From positions 32,001 to 96,000 of the forward strand of contig JBIJDH010000021.1 in assembly GCA_044344255.1 (NCBI GenBank): a stretch of DNA of 64,000 nt. The letters run 5' to 3'. Under the pieces are notes generated by a model. That model made no database searches, had not been told where the DNA came from, and saw only the letters and a program-made list of their open reading frames with translations. Below are positions 43,230-50,224 of the stretch, piece after piece; positions within the stretch are counted from its first letter, which is position 1; the number at the start of each line of letters is the position of its first letter. The translations under genes and the position numbers were made by a program. The DNA comes from Myxococcota bacterium (GTDB taxonomy: Bacteria; Myxococcota_A; UBA796; UBA2385).

Positions 43230-45302
43230 TCAGGTTGTCTCGGGTGTCGAGGGGCGATGCGGGCGAGGGCGGGCGGAGAGATCATTCCCCGTCGGCGGCC
43301 GTCCCGCCACCCACAGGCCGAGGATCCCGGCCAGCACCGCCGGGGAGAGCCCGACCAGGACCCCGGCCGAGGCGGCGATGAGGCCGATCAGCGCGGCGGC
43401 GGCGGGGATGAGGAGGGCCAGCGCGCGCCGCTCGGGGCGGAGGCCTCGGCTGAGCAGGGCGGTGGCGCCGCCGGTGAGCAGCGCGAGCAGGGCGTTCCAC
43501 TCGACCGCCAGGACCTTCAGCCCGGCCTGGCGGAGCAGGCTCTGGATCAGGGCGGCCTCGATCTCCACCCCGTAACGCGGCCCATCGGGCGTCTCGTGGA
43601 TGTCCTCCGTCCCGCCGTAGACCCCGAGCACCACGACCTTCCCGGCGAGCTCGTCGAAGCGGCCCCGCGCCGCATAGGGGACGACGGGCGCCTCGGCGGG
43701 CGGCGAGAAGGTGAAGAGCCCGCCGGCGATGGGGTTGTGCGTGGGGCCGATGATGAGCGCGTCGCCCTCGATGCGGGGCGGCTCCCGCCCGAGCTGAGCG
43801 GCGACCGCGAGCACGCTCGCGTGCCAGTAGCGCCGGCCATCGGGCAGGACCCGCTCGACCGGCGCGGCGCGGACGGTGCCGAAGAAGCGCTCCTCCTTGG
43901 CCTCCACGAGGCCGAGCGCCCCCCGGGCGAGGGCGGCGTGGGCCGGCGTCACCGCCTCGTCCCAGGCCACCCGCACGGGGAGGACCACGGTCACCCCCGC
44001 GGCGCGAAGCTCGGCCACGGCGCCGGCGATGGCCTCGTCCATCGGCGAGGGGGTGGAGAGCGCGAGGTCGAAGAGCACCGCCCGCACCCCCGCCTCCCGG
44101 AGCGCCCGCAGCGTGCCGGGGTGCTCGGCCCGCAGCGCCTTCACGTCGGGCACGTTCACGCCGAGGATGGCGACGTCGGTGGCCGGCAGCGGCCCTCGGG
44201 TCGCGCGCAGCACGGGGTACTGGAGGGCCACGTCGAGGGGGGAGAGGAGGTCGAGGATCGCGACGAGCGCGGGCAGGAGCAGCCACAGGCCTCGGCGGTC
44301 GCGGCGCCCTGCGGGAGGGGAGGGCGCCGCGGCCCAGGCCAGCTCCGGGAGCGGTGGAGAGGCCGAGGCGCGCGGCGGGAGGGGGACGGTGTCGGCCCCC
44401 GGGGGTGGATCGGCCGCCAGGGCGCCAGCGTCGAAGGTGAGGGCGGCGGTGTCGGGCTCGGCGGGCCGCTCCGCCCAGGTCTCCCGACCGTCGAGCACGG
44501 CCTCCAGCGTGCCGCAGTCCGGGATGCGCCGCTCCCGCTCGGTGACGAGGCAGCCCCGGATGGCCGCGAGGGCACGGGCGGGGAGCCCCGGGTTGAGCGC
44601 GAGCGGGTCTGGATACCTCCCCTCCACGACCGCGTAGAGGAGGGAGACAGAGTCTTCCGCCCGAAAGGGCCGCTTGCCGCAGAGCAGCTCATAGAGCATC
44701 ACCCCGAGGGACCAAATGTCCGCGCGGTGATCGACCCGACTGGCGTCGCGGACCTGCTCGGGCGCCATGTAGGCGGGCGTGCCGAGCGAGACCTGGCTGG
44801 CGGTCCGCGCGGCCCCCTCGTCACCGAGCAGCTTCGCGATCCCGAAGTCGGTCACCTTGGGGACGAGCTCTCCGGCCTCGCCTCTGCTGAGCAGGACATT
44901 TCCCGGCTTGAGGTCACGGTGCACGAGCCCAGCCCGGTGCGCCACGGCGACCGCCGAGACCACCGCGCGGAAGATCGTCTCGGCCTGGAGGTAGGGGAGC
45001 CGGCCCTTTCGCAGCAGGCCGTCGAGCGAGCCCCCCTCGACGAGCTCCATGACGAGGACGGGCACGCCGTCGACGTCGAGCACCTCGCTCACGCCGACGA
45101 TGTGGGGGTGGCGGAGGGCCGACTGGAGCCGCCCCTCCTCAATCATCCGCTCCTGGATCGAGGCGCTGCGCACGTGCAACACCTTGAGGGCGTGGACGCT
45201 GCCCCGCGCGCGGTGCCGGGCCCGGTACACACGGGCCATGCCCCCTTCGCCGAGCAGGGCCTCGATCTCGTACTCGCCGACGATGTCCCCGGGGCGTGGC
45301 AC
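43230..45302 (-). CDS. Ser/Thr protein kinase with C-terminal CHASE2 domain
   Basis: GEGGMARVY, HRDLKPGN, DFG, APE; CHASE2-like FDLALS and GKVVVLG...DIHETP...GVEIEA followed by 3 TM segments. Confidence 0.9.
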   Translation of the reverse strand: MPRPGDIVGEYEIEALLGEGGMARVYRARHRARGSVHALKVLHVRSASIQERMIEEGRLQSALRHPHIVGVSEVLDVDGVPVLVMELVEGGSLDGLLRKGRLPYLQAETIFRAVVSAVAVAHRAGLVHRDLKPGNVLLSRGEAGELVPKVTDFGIAKLLGDEGAARTASQVSLGTPAYMAPEQVRDASRVDHRADIWSLGVMLYELLCGKRPFRAEDSVSLLYAVVEGRYPDPLALNPGLPARALAAIRGCLVTERERRIPDCGTLEAVLDGRETWAERPAEPDTAALTFDAGALAADPPPGADTVPLPPRASASPPLPELAWAAAPSPPAGRRDRRGLWLLLPALVAILDLLSPLDVALQYPVLRATRGPLPATDVAILGVNVPDVKALRAEHPGTLRALREAGVRAVLFDLALSTPSPMDEAIAGAVAELRAAGVTVVLPVRVAWDEAVTPAHAALARGALGLVEAKEERFFGTVRAAPVERVLPDGRRYWHASVLAVAAQLGREPPRIEGDALIIGPTHNPIAGGLFTFSPPAEAPVVPYAARGRFDELAGKVVVLGVYGGTEDIHETPDGPRYGVEIEAALIQSLLRQAGLKVLAVEWNALLALLTGGATALLSRGLRPERRALALLIPAAAALIGLIAASAGVLVGLSPAVLAGILGLWVAGRPPTGNDLSARPRPHRPSTPETT

Positions 45303-45325: not shown

Positions 45326-46009
45326 CTACCGTGGGCCGAGGGCGCCCATCCCGAGCTCGTCGAGGAGGATCTGCACCACCTGGCGCTGCATCTCCACCCG
45401 CCGGGCCTCGGGGAAGCCCATCCAGGTCTCGACGCAGATCCCGACGCAGCCGATGTCGGCGACGATGACCTCGGTGGAGGAGGTGGCGACGGGGTAGTAG
45501 AGCGTGTCCCAGCGCTCCTCGGCCGAGGCCGCCTCATTCAGCCGCTCCACCCCTCGGCCGACGATCGGCGGCATGGGCTCGACGCCGTACACGAGGGTCT
45601 GCCCGAAGGAGGGCCGCACGGCGGGGTCGTAGCGCTTCTTGCTCTCGTGCAGCGTCGCCATCAGGGCCGGGCGCTCGTCGCGCACCAGGGCCATGAAGCG
45701 GGCCGCGAGCCGCCGCTCCCGCTCGGGGGCCGCCGCGTCTCCCGGGAAGCAGCGGTTGAGGTCGAGCCCGCCCGGCGCCGCGCGCTCCCGGGCCCGGTAG
45801 GCCGGCGGGTTCATCACGGGGACAACGAGCAGCCGCCCCCGCTCCGGGCGGGCCCCCTCCTCGATGAGCTCGAAGAGCGCGTGCACGCCGGCCACCTCAT
45901 CGCCGTGGATCCCCGCCTGCACGAGGGCGGTGGGCCCCGGGGCCGCCGCCTCGAAGACGTAGATGGGCAGGGTGGGGGCGAGGAAGTGGACACCGGGAGC
46001 GAGCGGCAA
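45326..46009 (-). CDS. Succinylglutamate desuccinylase/aspartoacylase (M14) family protein
   Basis: AGIHGDEVAG, DLNRCFPG, LHES. Confidence 0.9.
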   Translation of the reverse strand: MPLAPGVHFLAPTLPIYVFEAAAPGPTALVQAGIHGDEVAGVHALFELIEEGARPERGRLLVVPVMNPPAYRARERAAPGGLDLNRCFPGDAAAPERERRLAARFMALVRDERPALMATLHESKKRYDPAVRPSFGQTLVYGVEPMPPIVGRGVERLNEAASAEERWDTLYYPVATSSTEVIVADIGCVGICVETWMGFPEARRVEMQRQVVQILLDELGMGALGPR

Positions 46010-46183
46010 GGCGGCCTCCGAGCGGGGAGCGGAGCGGACCTAACCCCCGCCGCGGCCGCGCACCGGTCGACGGGCGCGCCCTCCCTGCTTACTTGAGAAA
46101 CCAGTTGCCCACTCTCTGGGAAGGGGCAGCCCCGATCCCCATCCTGTCGCCGGAGACCCCGCCTTTGCCTGTGTCACCACCCC

Positions 46184-46200
46184 TGGCACGCCCCTTGCAT
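46184..46200 (+). promoter_or_regulatory. Sigma54 (-24/-12) promoter
   Basis: TGGCACG-CCCC-TTGCAT matches consensus TGGCACG-N4-TTGCW; predicts a start site near 46210. Confidence 0.85.
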
Positions 46201-46209
46201 AAGTGTGCT

Positions 46210-47559
46210 GCGGCGCCGGGATGACCGGTGGCTCACCGAGAGGCACCGCGGGGAGGAAATGCTCCGCGGGTCGGGCGACCGACGAGCACTTTGACGTGAA
46301 ACAGACCTTTGAGCGGCACCGGTGACGGAGCGCTCTCTCGATGATGCGGTCCTGGAGTGATCCAGCTCGCGGCGGAGAGACAGCGCAGAAGACACCGGCG
46401 ACCTCGACCTGAACCTCCGAGTCGTCGGAGGATCGAGTGGAGGCCGAGCGAGCCGAGGCGCAGCAGCCAGAACCCCCCATCTGCCCCACCCCCACAGGGT
46501 GACGGTCGATCCGGTCGGGGCGAAGCCCGACAGAGATGTCGGGTGACGCGGAGGGAGAGGGCGACAGCGACTCGAGGAGTGGCCCGAACGAAGGAAGAAA
46601 CCCAAGGGAGCATCAGACCGAAGGGAGGCTGCAAGGCCGCCTGGATGGACTGGACTCTTCACCGGAGCAAGACCCTGAGGTCGCGCGGGAGGGAGGTCGA
46701 GAGGCCGAACCGAGCGTGAACGACGAGAGGGGACAAGGGCCGCGGCGACGCGGTACGGCTGGTTGAAGAGGAGGAAGGCTCCGAAGGGTAGACAGCTCGG
46801 GGGGAGCCAGGCGCGCGAGCGATCGGCATCCCGAACGGGCTGAACCCCAGGATCGGCAGCAGGGTGCAATAAACCTGCAAGCGACCATGCGGAGAAAACC
46901 GCTGTAGCCGGGAAGAACGGCAAGAGCGGAAGGAGCGGAGGGGCGGCATCCCCTTCGCCCAGGCGCGGCCCTCGAGAGAGGACCGAGCCCGGACCGGACG
47001 CATGGCGTGATGTCGATGGAGGGGATCTTTGGAAAACCCCAAGAGAGGAAGTCCGCGAGAGCGGCGTGAAAACCGGCACCCCCGACGGGGAGGTGACGCA
47101 GCGCACGCCGAGAGAACGGACCGCAGGATTCGAGCGCGAGTCCGGCAGGCGACCCCGCGAGGGAGCGACTGAACGGAATCGAAGTCTCTGAAGGTGGAGC
47201 GAAGGTCAGGAAGGTTGAACGAAAGGACGACCCGACACACCTGGTGCTCAGGACAGGAAGTGCCTCACAGACCTGCACACTCAAAAGGTGGCAAGGTCAA
47301 AGAGGACGGCTGGGAAGGCCAACGACCAGCGACCTGAAGTGAGTGGAGAATGGAGCCGGCGCCGCAACGCTGGAGCCAGGTACCGCGACCTTGAAGACCC
47401 CGCCAACCCCACGAGAGGCCAGACGAGCGACGCTGAGAGGGGCAACCCGAACAGCACAGGCAGTCTCCTCGAGTCCCCGCGAAAGCCTCTGCAGGGAACC
47501 CCATCGCCACCCGACGCCAAGAAGCCCTCCAGCGCAAGCTGGAGGGCTCTTTTCGTTTT
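46210..47559 (+). ncRNA. Candidate large structured noncoding RNA (~1.35 kb), family unrecognised
   Basis: No credible ORF; sigma54 promoter and terminator boundaries; 46209-46219 pairs with 47356-47366; nested helices; many GNRA hairpins; purine-rich + strand. Confidence 0.72.
47523..47559 (+). terminator. Intrinsic terminator
   Basis: AGCCCTCCAGC-GCAA-GCTGGAGGGCT 11-bp stem followed by CTTTTCGTTTT. Confidence 0.9.
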
Positions 47560-47630
47560 GTCGGCTCGCTACGGCCCGCCCGGCCCGGGGCCGGACGAGC
47601 CCTCCCCTGTGGGGGGCCTACCGGTTGGAC

Positions 47631-48764
47631 CTACCGGTTGGAGATCAGGTCGGCCGTCTCTTGACGGACGTCGCCCTTGCCCCAGTTGTTGTCCCGATTG
47701 GCGAGCTCGGCGGTCTTTCGCGCCTTCTTCTCGGCCTGCAGCTCCACGAGGTGGTGGTGCGTCGTGAAGTAGGGCAGGGACTTGCCGATGATGTCGGCGA
47801 CCGAGTCGAAATTGTGCATCTCGAGGAAGGACTCGGTGCCGCGGATGAGCTCGGCGACCATGTCGAAGCCCTGGAGCATCGGCCCGGTGCAGGACTGCAC
47901 CGTGGTGGCGCCCACCAACATGTGCTCGATGGCGTCGGCCGCGCTCGTGACGCCGCCGATGCCCGAGATGGTGAAGCCCGGCTGATCGAGGGCGATCTCG
48001 GCCACCATGCGGAGCGCGATGGGCTTGATGGCGAGGTAGGAGTAGCCGCCGAAGGTGGAGTGCCCCTCTACGGTGGGGGTGGGGCGCAGGGTCTTGAGGT
48101 CGATGCCGATCGTGCTGAGGATCGTGTTGATCGCGCTCACCCCGTCGGCGCCGCCGGCCTTCGCGGCACGGGAGGGCACGCGGATGTCGGTGATGTTGGG
48201 CGTCATCTTGGCCCAGACGGGCTTGCCGCCCGCGGCCTCGACCACCCAGCGGGTGACCTCCTCCACCATCGCTGGGTTCTGGCCCATCGCCGCGCCCATG
48301 CCCGTCTCGGGGTGGCCGTGGGGGCAGGAGAAATTGAGCTCGAGCGAGTCGCAGCCGGCGGCCAGACAGCGGCTGGCCAGCTCCTGCCAGCGGTCCTTGT
48401 TGTAACACTCCATGATCGAGCCGATGAGGATGCGGTCGGGCCAGGCGTCCTTGACCCGCTTGAAGTCGTCCTCCCAGTCCTCGAAGGGCCGGTCGCTGAT
48501 GAGCTCGATGTTCTGGAAGCCGACGTTGTCGCCGTTGGTCGAGCGCAGCTTGCCGTAGCGGGGCTGGACGTTGACCACGACGGTGTCGGTGAGGCTGGTC
48601 GTCTTGGCGACCACCCCGCCCCAGCCCGCGGCGAAGGCCTTGTTGATGATCGTGGCGTTGGTGCTGGGAGGCCCGCTCCCGATGACGAAGGGGTTCGGGA
48701 ACCGGAGCCCGTTGACCGTGATGGCGAGCTTGGACGAGCCCGCAGAAGATCCAGCGGTGGACAA
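47631..48764 (-). CDS. preA: Dihydropyrimidine dehydrogenase, PreA/PYD1-type FMN subunit
   Basis: NPFVIGSGPP, NIELISDR, ELNFSCPHG, KMTPNITDI, INT, SGIGG; TTG start after GAGGTG. Confidence 0.9.
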   Translation of the reverse strand: MSTAGSSAGSSKLAITVNGLRFPNPFVIGSGPPSTNATIINKAFAAGWGGVVAKTTSLTDTVVVNVQPRYGKLRSTNGDNVGFQNIELISDRPFEDWEDDFKRVKDAWPDRILIGSIMECYNKDRWQELASRCLAAGCDSLELNFSCPHGHPETGMGAAMGQNPAMVEEVTRWVVEAAGGKPVWAKMTPNITDIRVPSRAAKAGGADGVSAINTILSTIGIDLKTLRPTPTVEGHSTFGGYSYLAIKPIALRMVAEIALDQPGFTISGIGGVTSAADAIEHMLVGATTVQSCTGPMLQGFDMVAELIRGTESFLEMHNFDSVADIIGKSLPYFTTHHHLVELQAEKKARKTAELANRDNNWGKGDVRQETADLISNR

Positions 48765-48800
48765 GGGCGCACCTCGTTGCGCGAAGGGAACGAGCAGTCT

Positions 48801-48911
48801 ACACCAATGTCCCCCCCCAACACCAATGTCCCCCCCCAACACCAATGTCCCCCCCAACACCAGTGTTCCCCCCCCACACCAATGTTCCCCCCCCCACCAA
48901 TGTCCCTCCCC
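48801..48911. repeat. Tandem repeat, 6 copies of ~19 bp ACACCAATGT(C)7-9
   Basis: Direct reading; lies between divergent preA and the deaminase gene. Confidence 0.9.
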
Positions 48912-48934
48912 GGCGCGGATGGTAGACTGCTCGC

Positions 48935-50224
48935 ATGCTCTTCGAGAACGCATGGCTCAACGGTGATCGGGTAGATATGCGGGTTTCGGGCGGCCGAATC
49001 ACCGCGCTTCGGGTCGTCGCGCCGGCGGGCCCGCGCGCGCCTGACCCTCCGCTCGTCCCCCGCCACGGCGAGGAGGTGGTTCGGGACGGCATGATCTGCC
49101 CTCACTTCGCCGAACCCCACGTCCACCTCGACGCCACGCAGCTCGGGCTGCGCAAGCCGAACGTCTCGGGCACGCTCCGGGAGGGCATCCGCAACTGGGC
49201 AGAGCTGCGCGACGGCCTCACTTGGCCTGACGTACGCCATCGGGCGCTCAAGACCATCCGCTGGTACGTCTCGCTCGGCACCACCCGCATCCGCACCCAC
49301 GTCGACACCGCCTGCCTCCCCGCCGTGGAGGCCCTGATCGCGCTGCGGGCCGAGCTCGCCGACGGCCTGCCCGGCGTCATGGCCCGCCCCGTCGACGGCG
49401 GCCGCGAGTTCAAGATCCCAGTCGAGCTCCAGGTGGTGGCCTTCCCCCAGGAGGGCATCCTCCGCGCCCCTGGGCAGCGGGACCGCCTCAACCAGGTGGC
49501 GGCCCTCGGGGTCAACGCCATCGGCGCCATCCCCCACTTCGAGCGCACCACCGACGAGGGCTGGCGCTCGGTGCGGCTGGCCTTTGATCTCGCCGAGAAG
49601 CACGGCGTGGGCATCGACATCCACTGTGACGAGACGGACGATCCGGACAGCCGCAACCTCGAGGTGGTGGCCGCCGAGTCCATCGACCGCGGGATGGGCG
49701 GGAAGGTGGTCGCCGGTCACTGCACGGCCCTCCACTCCTACCCGAACGCCTACGCGGCGAAGATCGTCGAGCTCACGGCCAAGGCGGGGCTGCTCGTGGT
49801 GGCCAACCCCCTCGACAACGTCGTGCTGCAGGGCCGTTACGACGGATACCCCCGGCGGCGGGGCATCACGCGGGTCGATGAGCTCTGGGCCGCGGGGGCG
49901 CGGGTGGCGATCGGCCACGACTCCGTGATGGACCCCTGGTACCGCCTCGGCACCGCCAACATGATCGATCCCGCCTACATGCTCCTCCATGTGGCCCAGC
50001 TCACGAGCGAGCGGGAGATGAACCGGGTCTTTCACACGCTGCACCGCGAGAACCACCAGCCCTTCGGCGAGGTGCCGCCGATCATGGAGGGTGCCTGGGC
50101 CACCTTCCAGTGGTTCCCCGCCGATGATCCCATCGAGTGCCTCCGCCTCCGCCCGCGTGCCCGCGTGCTCTACCGCGGCGGTGAGGTGCACGTGCCCGTG
50201 GATAGCGCTGACTCCGTGCGCTAG
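48935..50224 (+). CDS. codA: Cytosine deaminase-like amidohydrolase
   Basis: EPHVHLD, RTHVD, VAFPQEG, GAIPHFE, DIHCDETDD, GHDSVMDPWY. Confidence 0.88.
   Translation: MLFENAWLNGDRVDMRVSGGRITALRVVAPAGPRAPDPPLVPRHGEEVVRDGMICPHFAEPHVHLDATQLGLRKPNVSGTLREGIRNWAELRDGLTWPDVRHRALKTIRWYVSLGTTRIRTHVDTACLPAVEALIALRAELADGLPGVMARPVDGGREFKIPVELQVVAFPQEGILRAPGQRDRLNQVAALGVNAIGAIPHFERTTDEGWRSVRLAFDLAEKHGVGIDIHCDETDDPDSRNLEVVAAESIDRGMGGKVVAGHCTALHSYPNAYAAKIVELTAKAGLLVVANPLDNVVLQGRYDGYPRRRGITRVDELWAAGARVAIGHDSVMDPWYRLGTANMIDPAYMLLHVAQLTSEREMNRVFHTLHRENHQPFGEVPPIMEGAWATFQWFPADDPIECLRLRPRARVLYRGGEVHVPVDSADSVR

Follow-up and report, generated by a model that had tools for sequence, protein, structure and literature searches.

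A candidate family of large structured noncoding RNAs with sigma54-type promoters in Myxococcota

What does a gap of 1621 nucleotides (nt) between two minus-strand genes of a Myxococcota bacterium encode? The gap (between positions 46009 and 47631), reported in an earlier note made from the sequence letters alone and measured again here, lies in a stretch of 64,000 nt (contig JBIJDH010000021.1, positions 32,001 to 96,000 of the forward strand; GenBank assembly GCA_044344255.1). This whole stretch is called the window below, and all positions are given in its coordinates. Positions 46210-47559 of the plus strand are read here, with a probability of about 0.85, as one of three genes for an uncatalogued family of large (1.1-2.5 kilobases, kb) structured noncoding RNAs of Myxococcota. 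The figure applies to the explanation taken whole, including the inferred activator switch and a role in trans. That the locus is a gene for a structured noncoding RNA of a new family, with a sigma54-type promoter, is by itself very probable.

The earlier note had proposed a free-standing, sigma54-transcribed, structured noncoding RNA of about 1.35 kb belonging to no known family. Each element of this proposal was supported: the promoter and enhancer sites are conserved, paired positions covary, neither a coding signal nor an Rfam match was found, and contigs from RNA libraries fall within the predicted transcript. The fold drawn there was the one part that proved partly wrong, as two of its three long-range helices failed. 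All of the sequence strings that it quoted were present where it had placed them.

Promoter, transcript and expression

A −24/−12 promoter of the sigma54 type, TGGCAC-N5-TTGCA, is located on the plus strand at 46184-46199 (TGGCAC 46184-46189, TTGCA 46195-46199). This element, already recognized in the earlier note, is kept in both paralogues of the genome and at 12 of the 15 homologue loci examined. At those 12 loci TTGGCACG-N5-TGCA is followed by 9 nt and then by a conserved (U)GCGGCRCCGGG start; of the three remaining loci, L006 gave no match in the available DNA, and at L010 and L019 the DNA ends inside the RNA. The string TGGCACG-N5-TGCA occurs 29 times in the 8.18-megabase (Mb) genome, and three of these occurrences are at the RNA copies. 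The transcript is predicted to extend from 46210 to 47559 (+), the start being placed by the usual spacing from the −12 element.

Upstream of the promoter lies an enhancer-like palindrome of the TGAGAA-N6-TTGCCCA type (46094-46111, 90 nt before TGGCAC), which differs from TGGGAA-N6-TTCCCA at 2 of 12 positions. Palindromes of the TGGGAA-N6-TTCCCA type were present within 260 nt upstream at 16 of 19 loci, compared with 3 of 333 control windows. They are usually paired in most relatives, at −61 and about −185, and stand at −90 in the lineage of the window. A second upstream box, GGGAAGGGGCAGCCCCGATCCC (46118-46139), is an imperfect palindrome kept in all three copies; its pattern was found only three times in the 8.18-Mb genome, once upstream of each copy. 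The genome contains 36 matches to Sigma54_activat (enhancer-binding-protein genes), none of them within 70 kb of any copy, and no activator gene linked to the RNA was seen in the flanks of the homologue loci or near the genome copies.

The transcript is predicted to end at an intrinsic terminator (47523-47559, +) composed of a GC-rich stem of 11 base pairs (bp; 47523-47548), a GCAA loop and a T-run. The stem and T-run, which the earlier note had also marked, were returned by a terminator search, and the paralogue carries compensatory changes in the stem (CCAGC/GCTGG to CCAAC/GTTGG). The RNA gene is composed of 24% A, 10% U, 37% G and 29% C. On the plus strand the gap has 24% A and 10% T against 14% and 13% in the flanks, and its GC content is below that of its surroundings.

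The RNA is expressed, as judged by contigs assembled from RNA libraries, which are confined to the predicted transcript. Contigs from four RNA runs of four studies covered 46218-47521, 46224-47503, 46240-47553 and 46225-47509, and the same runs gave no contig coverage in 46000-46217 or 47554-47800. In one run the letters of the contig directly at 46225 are taken to be a sequencing adapter. Six metatranscriptome runs contained 0.53-0.72 of the sampled words of an 1801-nt stretch, 75% of which is RNA gene; DNA runs contained up to all of them. Freshwater RNA libraries plainly contain the family.

The metagenome matches listed are mostly whole contigs of 1.0-2.9 kb that resemble assembled transcripts, with the promoter present in 4 of 80. 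The UCUUUGA motif lies 64-78 nt from the predicted start, and of the promoter-less contigs listed, 55 of 57 have their first letter 5-70 nt ahead of this motif. At the other end, 39 of 51 of the contigs listed stop 16-58 nt past the 3' motif, where the closing helix described below is located, and not at the terminator. Such ends may mean that the mature RNA is trimmed at its 3' end, or may be an effect of assembly. In the interval 47503-47553, most RNA-derived contigs (L063-L142) stop before the terminator hairpin, and one run reaches 47553 at lower depth.

Copies, fold and closing helix

The genome holds three copies of the gene: that of the window, one on contig 29, and one split at a contig break. 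The other two share 73-78% identity with the window copy and about 97% with one another, and homology between paralogues spans promoter to terminator (46184-47568). The split copy is made up of the end of contig 42 (149362-149757; L022) and the start of contig 29 (5-1134; L021), whose ends overlap and would join; in the joined sequence about 2.2 kb would separate two tandem copies, and one TPR and one metallophosphoesterase gene would lie in this interval. A further sigma54-like site, TGGCACG-N5-GTGCT, was observed a short way upstream of copy B (L016 position 610; contig 29 at about 5620, minus strand), followed by a ribosome-binding-like sequence, an ATG and an open reading frame (ORF) of 296 amino acids that has no Pfam match.

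A profile based on the copies recovered collinear relatives of 1.1-2.5 kb in other genomes. Distribution was surveyed with R1, a 93-nt covariance model of the most conserved core. R1 matched 76 of 151 genomes of the order (six of its seven families, 1-3 copies each), 87 of 151 in the class sample, among them every one of the 15 genomes sampled from another family, which have as many as six copies, and 26 of 151 in the phylum sample, of which 11 were outside the class. Several well-sampled families of the phylum sample gave no R1 match (0/11, 0/13, 0/9 and 0/8). A core-motif scan of metagenomes yielded at least 120 stretches, and all 120 listed match the family profile. A promoter-plus-start pattern applied to species genomes gave 38 stretches, among them nine true relatives and, through an improved profile, the partial relative L062; the remainder were judged to be chance matches in GC-rich genomes.

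Conservation of the promoter beyond the class is not established, the element being seen at only three of eight distant loci: at two by pattern and at a third (L190) by reading, with a variant −12 box. The family profile gave no match at four of these eight loci, all of which the core model had matched. The variant box, TCGCA, occurs in the promoters of G099, a near-complete genome of 8.1 Mb that consists of two contigs. On contig 1 of that genome (2184500-2191000; L190) two full copies stand in tandem, each with a TCGCA promoter and TGGGAA-N6-TTCCCA sites, and with TPR and radical-SAM genes beside them.

The fold was derived from 137 members aligned with iterated profile hidden Markov models (130 distinct at 97% identity; effective number about 103). 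RNAalifold, applied to the 57 most complete members, gave 25 helices with 143 pairs. These pairs were canonical in 90.7% of 13,986 alignment cells, compared with 35-42% for slid partners and 75.9% for shuffles, and double changes were found in 114 of the 143, compared with 70-76 for slid partners and at most 89 in 200 shuffles. When mutual information was computed free of any fold, canonical stacked pairs ranked at the top and the same helices were recovered. The 93-nt core was also aligned separately with MAFFT (128 sequences); there, 99.9% of 1722 cells were paired and nine of 14 pairs were compensatory, and none of 500 shuffles scored as high. Frequent G:U pairs, such as U:G in 47 of 123 sequences at one core pair, place the transcript on the plus strand.

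One domain (46600-46789) is closed by 46600-03/46786-89 and 46607-11/46778-82. It contains the helices 46622-30/46635-43 (GCAA loop), 46655-65/46759-70, 46672-76/46728-32, 46680-83/46721-24 and 46740-44/46749-53 (GYGA loop), which are 0.79-0.99 canonical with up to six pair types per pair; of its two conserved tetraloops, one fits GNRA in 90 of 99 sequences and the other in 118 of 119. The second of these, at 46740-46753, is one of the GNRA hairpins named in the earlier note and covaries throughout the family. A variable hairpin follows (46795-46842; approximately 46795-99/46836-42 and 46805-08/46827-30, 0.94 and 0.73 canonical), which is also represented among the mutual-information pairs.

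The most conserved core (46846-47023) comprises 46846-57/47012-23, 46859-63/46874-78 with a 10-nt loop GUGCAAYARA, 46882-91/46999-47007, 46899-903/46925-29, 46907-10/46918-21 and 46932-43/46949-60. At the hairpin 46907-21, covariation extends to non-Watson-Crick positions: A.A swaps with G.G at 46906/46922, and at 46911/46915 the loop GGGAGGA swaps with GUGAGAA, a pattern suggestive of a structured loop motif that exists in two isosteric forms. The hairpin loop (U)UGGC at 46944-46948 pairs with GCCAA at 47318-47322, within the conserved 12-nt loop GAAGGCCAACGA, as a kissing loop. The counts at its pairs are U-A in 56 of 58, G-C in 67 of 68, G-C in 70 of 70, and C-G in 46 plus U-A in 13 of 73, and the paralogue carries a GGU/ACC version.

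Two long-range helices, 47037-40/47494-97 (0.97 canonical) and 47044-47/47487-90 (1.00 canonical), join the region after the core to the conserved CUCUGMAGGGR motif (47487-47497), which supplies their 3' strands. One further pair, 47032/47500, also covaries (GC 29, AU 16 and GU 5 of 52). Between their strands lie a lineage-specific variable insert (47051-47180), which has low occupancy and large length differences, and a 3' domain (47184-47419). The helices of the 3' domain are 47184-89/47414-19, 47193-96/47407-10, 47198-201/47401-04, 47204-07/47396-99, 47211-17/47386-92, 47263-66/47302-05, 47270-73/47295-98 and 47309-13/47326-30 (0.82-0.96 canonical, up to six pair types). The multi-stem domain that the earlier note drew at 47051-47121 has the sequence described, and it falls within the variable insert.

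The 5' domain varies from 146 to 1382 nt across the family. It contains the conserved motif UCUUUGACGU (46288-46297), which among the metagenome matches listed is present in 57 of 76 promoter-less contigs and in all four that bear a promoter. Of the other GNRA-capped hairpins in the earlier note, those at 46270-46283 (GCGA loop) and 46970-46981 (GAGA loop) have compensatory changes in the paralogue when compared by eye, the former being GUCGG...CCGAC here and GUCUG...CAGAC there, and both lie in regions that vary across the family. At 46526-46543 there is a hairpin, with the loop AGAGAU and not a GNRA loop.

The two ends of the RNA pair in a closing helix, P1. In the window its 5' strand is at 46212-46231 and its 3' strand at 47501-47518, directly before the terminator; the pairs are 46212-20/47510-18, with one C.A mismatch, and 46227-31/47501-05. 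At 11 of 13 loci with both ends, the best duplex of the first 24 nt was found 9-40 nt (54 nt at one locus) after the CUCUGAAGGGGA motif. In this test the best duplex of the window copy lay beyond the terminator, the 3' motif was absent from L013 and L119, and L064 extends only 33 nt beyond it. The sequences of P1 vary between lineages yet remain complementary.

The earlier note had closed the RNA differently, by an 11-bp helix of 46209-19 with 47356-66. This complement is perfect in the window and partly kept in the paralogue, without covariation: 46215/47360 is A:C in four of 10 sequences, while 46215/47515 of P1 is G:C in four, A:U in three and G:U in two of 10. The 11-bp pairing may be a lineage-specific alternative. 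Two helices that had been nested inside it did not hold up. For CTTTGAC/GTCAAAG the letters are conserved with no compensatory change, and 47296-98 belong to the covarying helix with 47270-73; for ACCTTTGAG/CTCAAAAGGT, at most about 64% of sequences were canonical at any pair.

The flanking genes are an AstE/AspA-like gene (45326-46009, minus strand) and a DHO_dh-like gene (47631-48953, minus strand). The former, an ORF of 227 amino acids, matches the profile of its catalytic domain over positions 1-81 of 192 only and may be truncated or divergent; it adjoins a gene for a Ser/Thr protein kinase with a CHASE2 sensor domain (43230-45302, minus strand). On the other side (47631-50224), the dihydroorotate/dihydropyrimidine dehydrogenase-like gene is divergent from an amidohydrolase gene on the plus strand, an arrangement that recalls pyrimidine breakdown genes; no link of this pair to the RNA was seen at other loci. 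At four loci of different genomes (L034, L038, L053 and L059), genes for a DegT-type aminotransferase and a PilD prepilin peptidase are directly upstream on the same strand, which may mean that gene order is shared or that there is a link in function to type IV pili.

Known RNAs, function and competing explanations

No Rfam 15 covariance model matched at its gathering score anywhere in the window. At E values up to 10 the RNA region gave only terminator-like chance matches far below gathering, and at E values up to 0.1 the 20 homologue loci gave one unrelated match, outside the RNA. The scan, which the earlier note had proposed, found no match in 21 members; it included OLE, GOLLD, ROOL, raiA, HEARO, RNase P, 6S, tmRNA and group I/II introns, together with CsrB/Rsm, Qrr, Pxr and Y RNA. 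The RNase P RNA of the genome is encoded elsewhere. No description of the RNA was found in the literature, the search for which did not extend to subscription journals or to Rfam releases after 15. The RNA is a new family fitting no catalogued class, and descriptively it joins the 'large ornate RNAs'.

Regulatory RNAs dependent on sigma54 and an activator include Qrr1-4 with LuxO, GlmY/GlmZ with GlrR, and Pxr of Myxococcus. Like the present RNA they have a −24/−12 promoter with paired activator sites, several paralogues and an intrinsic terminator. They are about 100-200 nt long and act by base pairing or protein titration, whereas the present RNA is about 10 times larger and of a globular type; the Rfam models of Qrr, GlmY/GlmZ and Pxr gave no match in the window. 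The ends of 6S RNA, Y RNA and RNase P RNA pair into a long closing helix, as here, but none of their models matched, and size and core are unrelated.

A further likeness is offered by OLE, GOLLD, ROOL and raiA, large ornate RNAs of bacteria whose function is barely known or unknown (Weinberg et al. 2017, PMC5737381; cryo-EM preprint 10.1101/2024.12.08.627333). These RNAs and the present one are free-standing, noncoding and hundreds of nt or more in length; they share many covarying helices, strictly conserved junction and loop nucleotides, long-range tertiary contacts and a fixed core with variable peripheral inserts, and they are present in environmental RNA libraries. The present RNA differs from them in being 2-4 times longer (1.1-2.5 kb) and in having a sigma54 promoter with its own enhancer sites; it is chromosomal in Myxococcota, with several paralogues, and they are of Firmicutes, phages and gut or lake bacteria. 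It gives no match to their Rfam models.

A pattern in which the junctions are conserved and the peripheral inserts vary is that of RNase P, introns, OLE, ROOL and GOLLD, and not of antisense or sponge RNAs. Because the RNA has this pattern, a scaffold or catalytic role is favored, at somewhat short of even odds. In the mechanism proposed, an unlinked enhancer-binding protein, one of the 36, would bind the paired palindromes and fire sigma54 transcription on a signal. The RNA would close on itself through its terminal helix, and its GNRA loops, kissing loop and conserved junctions would serve to pack the domains, giving a compact globular particle. The RNA would then act in trans as a structural RNA, whether as a protein scaffold, an RNA-only assembly or a catalyst, a mode that would exclude antisense pairing and action as a motif-repeat sponge.

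A number of points weigh against this reading. The sequence itself points to no function, and no conserved protein partner gene adjoins the RNA. Dependence on sigma54 and an activator is strongly suggested, but by motifs only. The contigs from RNA runs show neither strand, exact ends nor level, and carry-over of DNA into those runs is formally possible, although the flanks were bare. The alignment was made with profile hidden Markov models from members gathered in part by a core-motif pattern, which inflates the apparent conservation of the core. The background of mutual information from relatedness is high; it dominated a search for further pseudoknots, from which only the kissing loop and the one extra pair stood up. 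The 5' domain (46234-46595) gave no convincing fold in a profile alignment of 26 sequences. The duplex energies of P1 have z values of −0.2 to −3.5 relative to shuffled 5' ends, no clear gain, so that support for P1 rests on its position and covariation.

After a scaffold or catalytic role, the reading that ranks next, though unlikely, is that of a decoy. Like CsrB/RsmZ or 6S RNA, it would sequester a protein, such as Hfq, RNA polymerase or a CsrA-type translational regulator, and the copies would give dosage. The genomes of the order carry 1-3 paralogues and others up to six, and Qrr and Rsm RNAs are likewise multi-copy; switches of this type (Qrr/LuxO, GlmY/GlrR) typically have a sigma54 enhancer of their own. 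A CsrA homologue is encoded in the genome, and the purine-rich RNA contains 55 GGA triplets compared with 44 ± 5 in shuffles. However, only six GGA triplets are conserved throughout the family, and one of the six is fully unpaired in a hairpin loop; a sponge of the CsrB/RsmZ type was rejected on this count in spite of the CsrA gene. Conservation resides in junctions, long-range helices and the kissing loop and not in a repeated short motif, and the RNA is three to six times the size of known decoys.

A mobile or selfish element, either a non-autonomous transposon with terminal inverted repeats or the template RNA of a retroelement, would account for the multiple and tandem copies, the contig break inside one copy and the complementary 5' and 3' ends, but is very improbable. 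At 26 loci, the flanks searched (2.6 kb each, less at contig or locus ends) contained no gene for a reverse transcriptase, a transposase or a Cas protein, and the terminal pairing covaries between lineages and has no fixed recognition sequence; the element was rejected on these grounds, target-site duplications not having been looked for. In addition, the genome copies differ by 27% with structure kept, the degT-pilD neighborhood at four loci of different genomes suggests vertical descent, and the unit carries its own promoter, enhancer and terminator.

More improbable still is a coding role, in which small or unusual proteins, one or several, would be made from the locus with or without an RNA function. 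Open stretches of up to 125 codons (+) and 333 codons (−) do occur in this GC-rich sequence, and the longest plus-strand ORF has a median of 143 codons in 68 members. Even so, no coding signal of the kind that the earlier note had said would count against an RNA appeared in any frame: the synonymous share was 0.15-0.20 in all six frames, with no excess (20 sequence pairs, 70-88% identity), and column variability in the family alignment had no three-base (lag-3) periodicity. Each plus-strand frame has 8-11 stops, the two long minus-strand ORFs that were scanned gave no Pfam match, indels are frequent and frame is not preserved, and covariation tracks RNA pairing, including G:U. Least credible is a long leader, trailer or antisense transcript serving a neighbor in cis, which would fit the intergenic position and the four loci directly downstream of pilD on the same strand, but both neighbors in the window are on the opposite strand with the terminator ending the transcript before them, neighboring genes differ between copies and between genomes, and the RNA contigs stop at the ends of the gene.

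Significance of the family

Large, highly structured bacterial RNAs are rare, and RNase P, group I/II introns, OLE, GOLLD and ROOL each opened new biochemistry or structural biology. The present family, read here as one of large structured noncoding RNAs, exceeds all these non-ribosomal classes in length. About one in two of the genomes sampled from one order carry it, as do several other lineages of Myxococcota, yet the catalogues missed it. Among the large ornate RNAs it is the longest and the only one with an enhancer-dependent promoter, as inferred above.

The conserved promoter and enhancer provide an experimental handle, in that finding the activator would lead to the signal. The closing helix, GNRA loops and kissing loop make the RNA a good target for chemical probing and cryo-electron microscopy, and near-complete carrier genomes, one of them of 8.1 Mb in two contigs with two tandem copies, suggest that a culturable host may exist.

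More doubtfully, a new class of giant bacterial RNAs could be founded by this RNA: a closed, multi-domain RNA machine (a ribozyme, a ribonucleoprotein core or an RNA-only assembly) under a sigma54 enhancer switch. If so, no structured non-ribosomal RNA family so far would be larger, and enhancer-dependent control would be seen for the first time in a large structural RNA; the phylum concerned is one noted for multicellular development.

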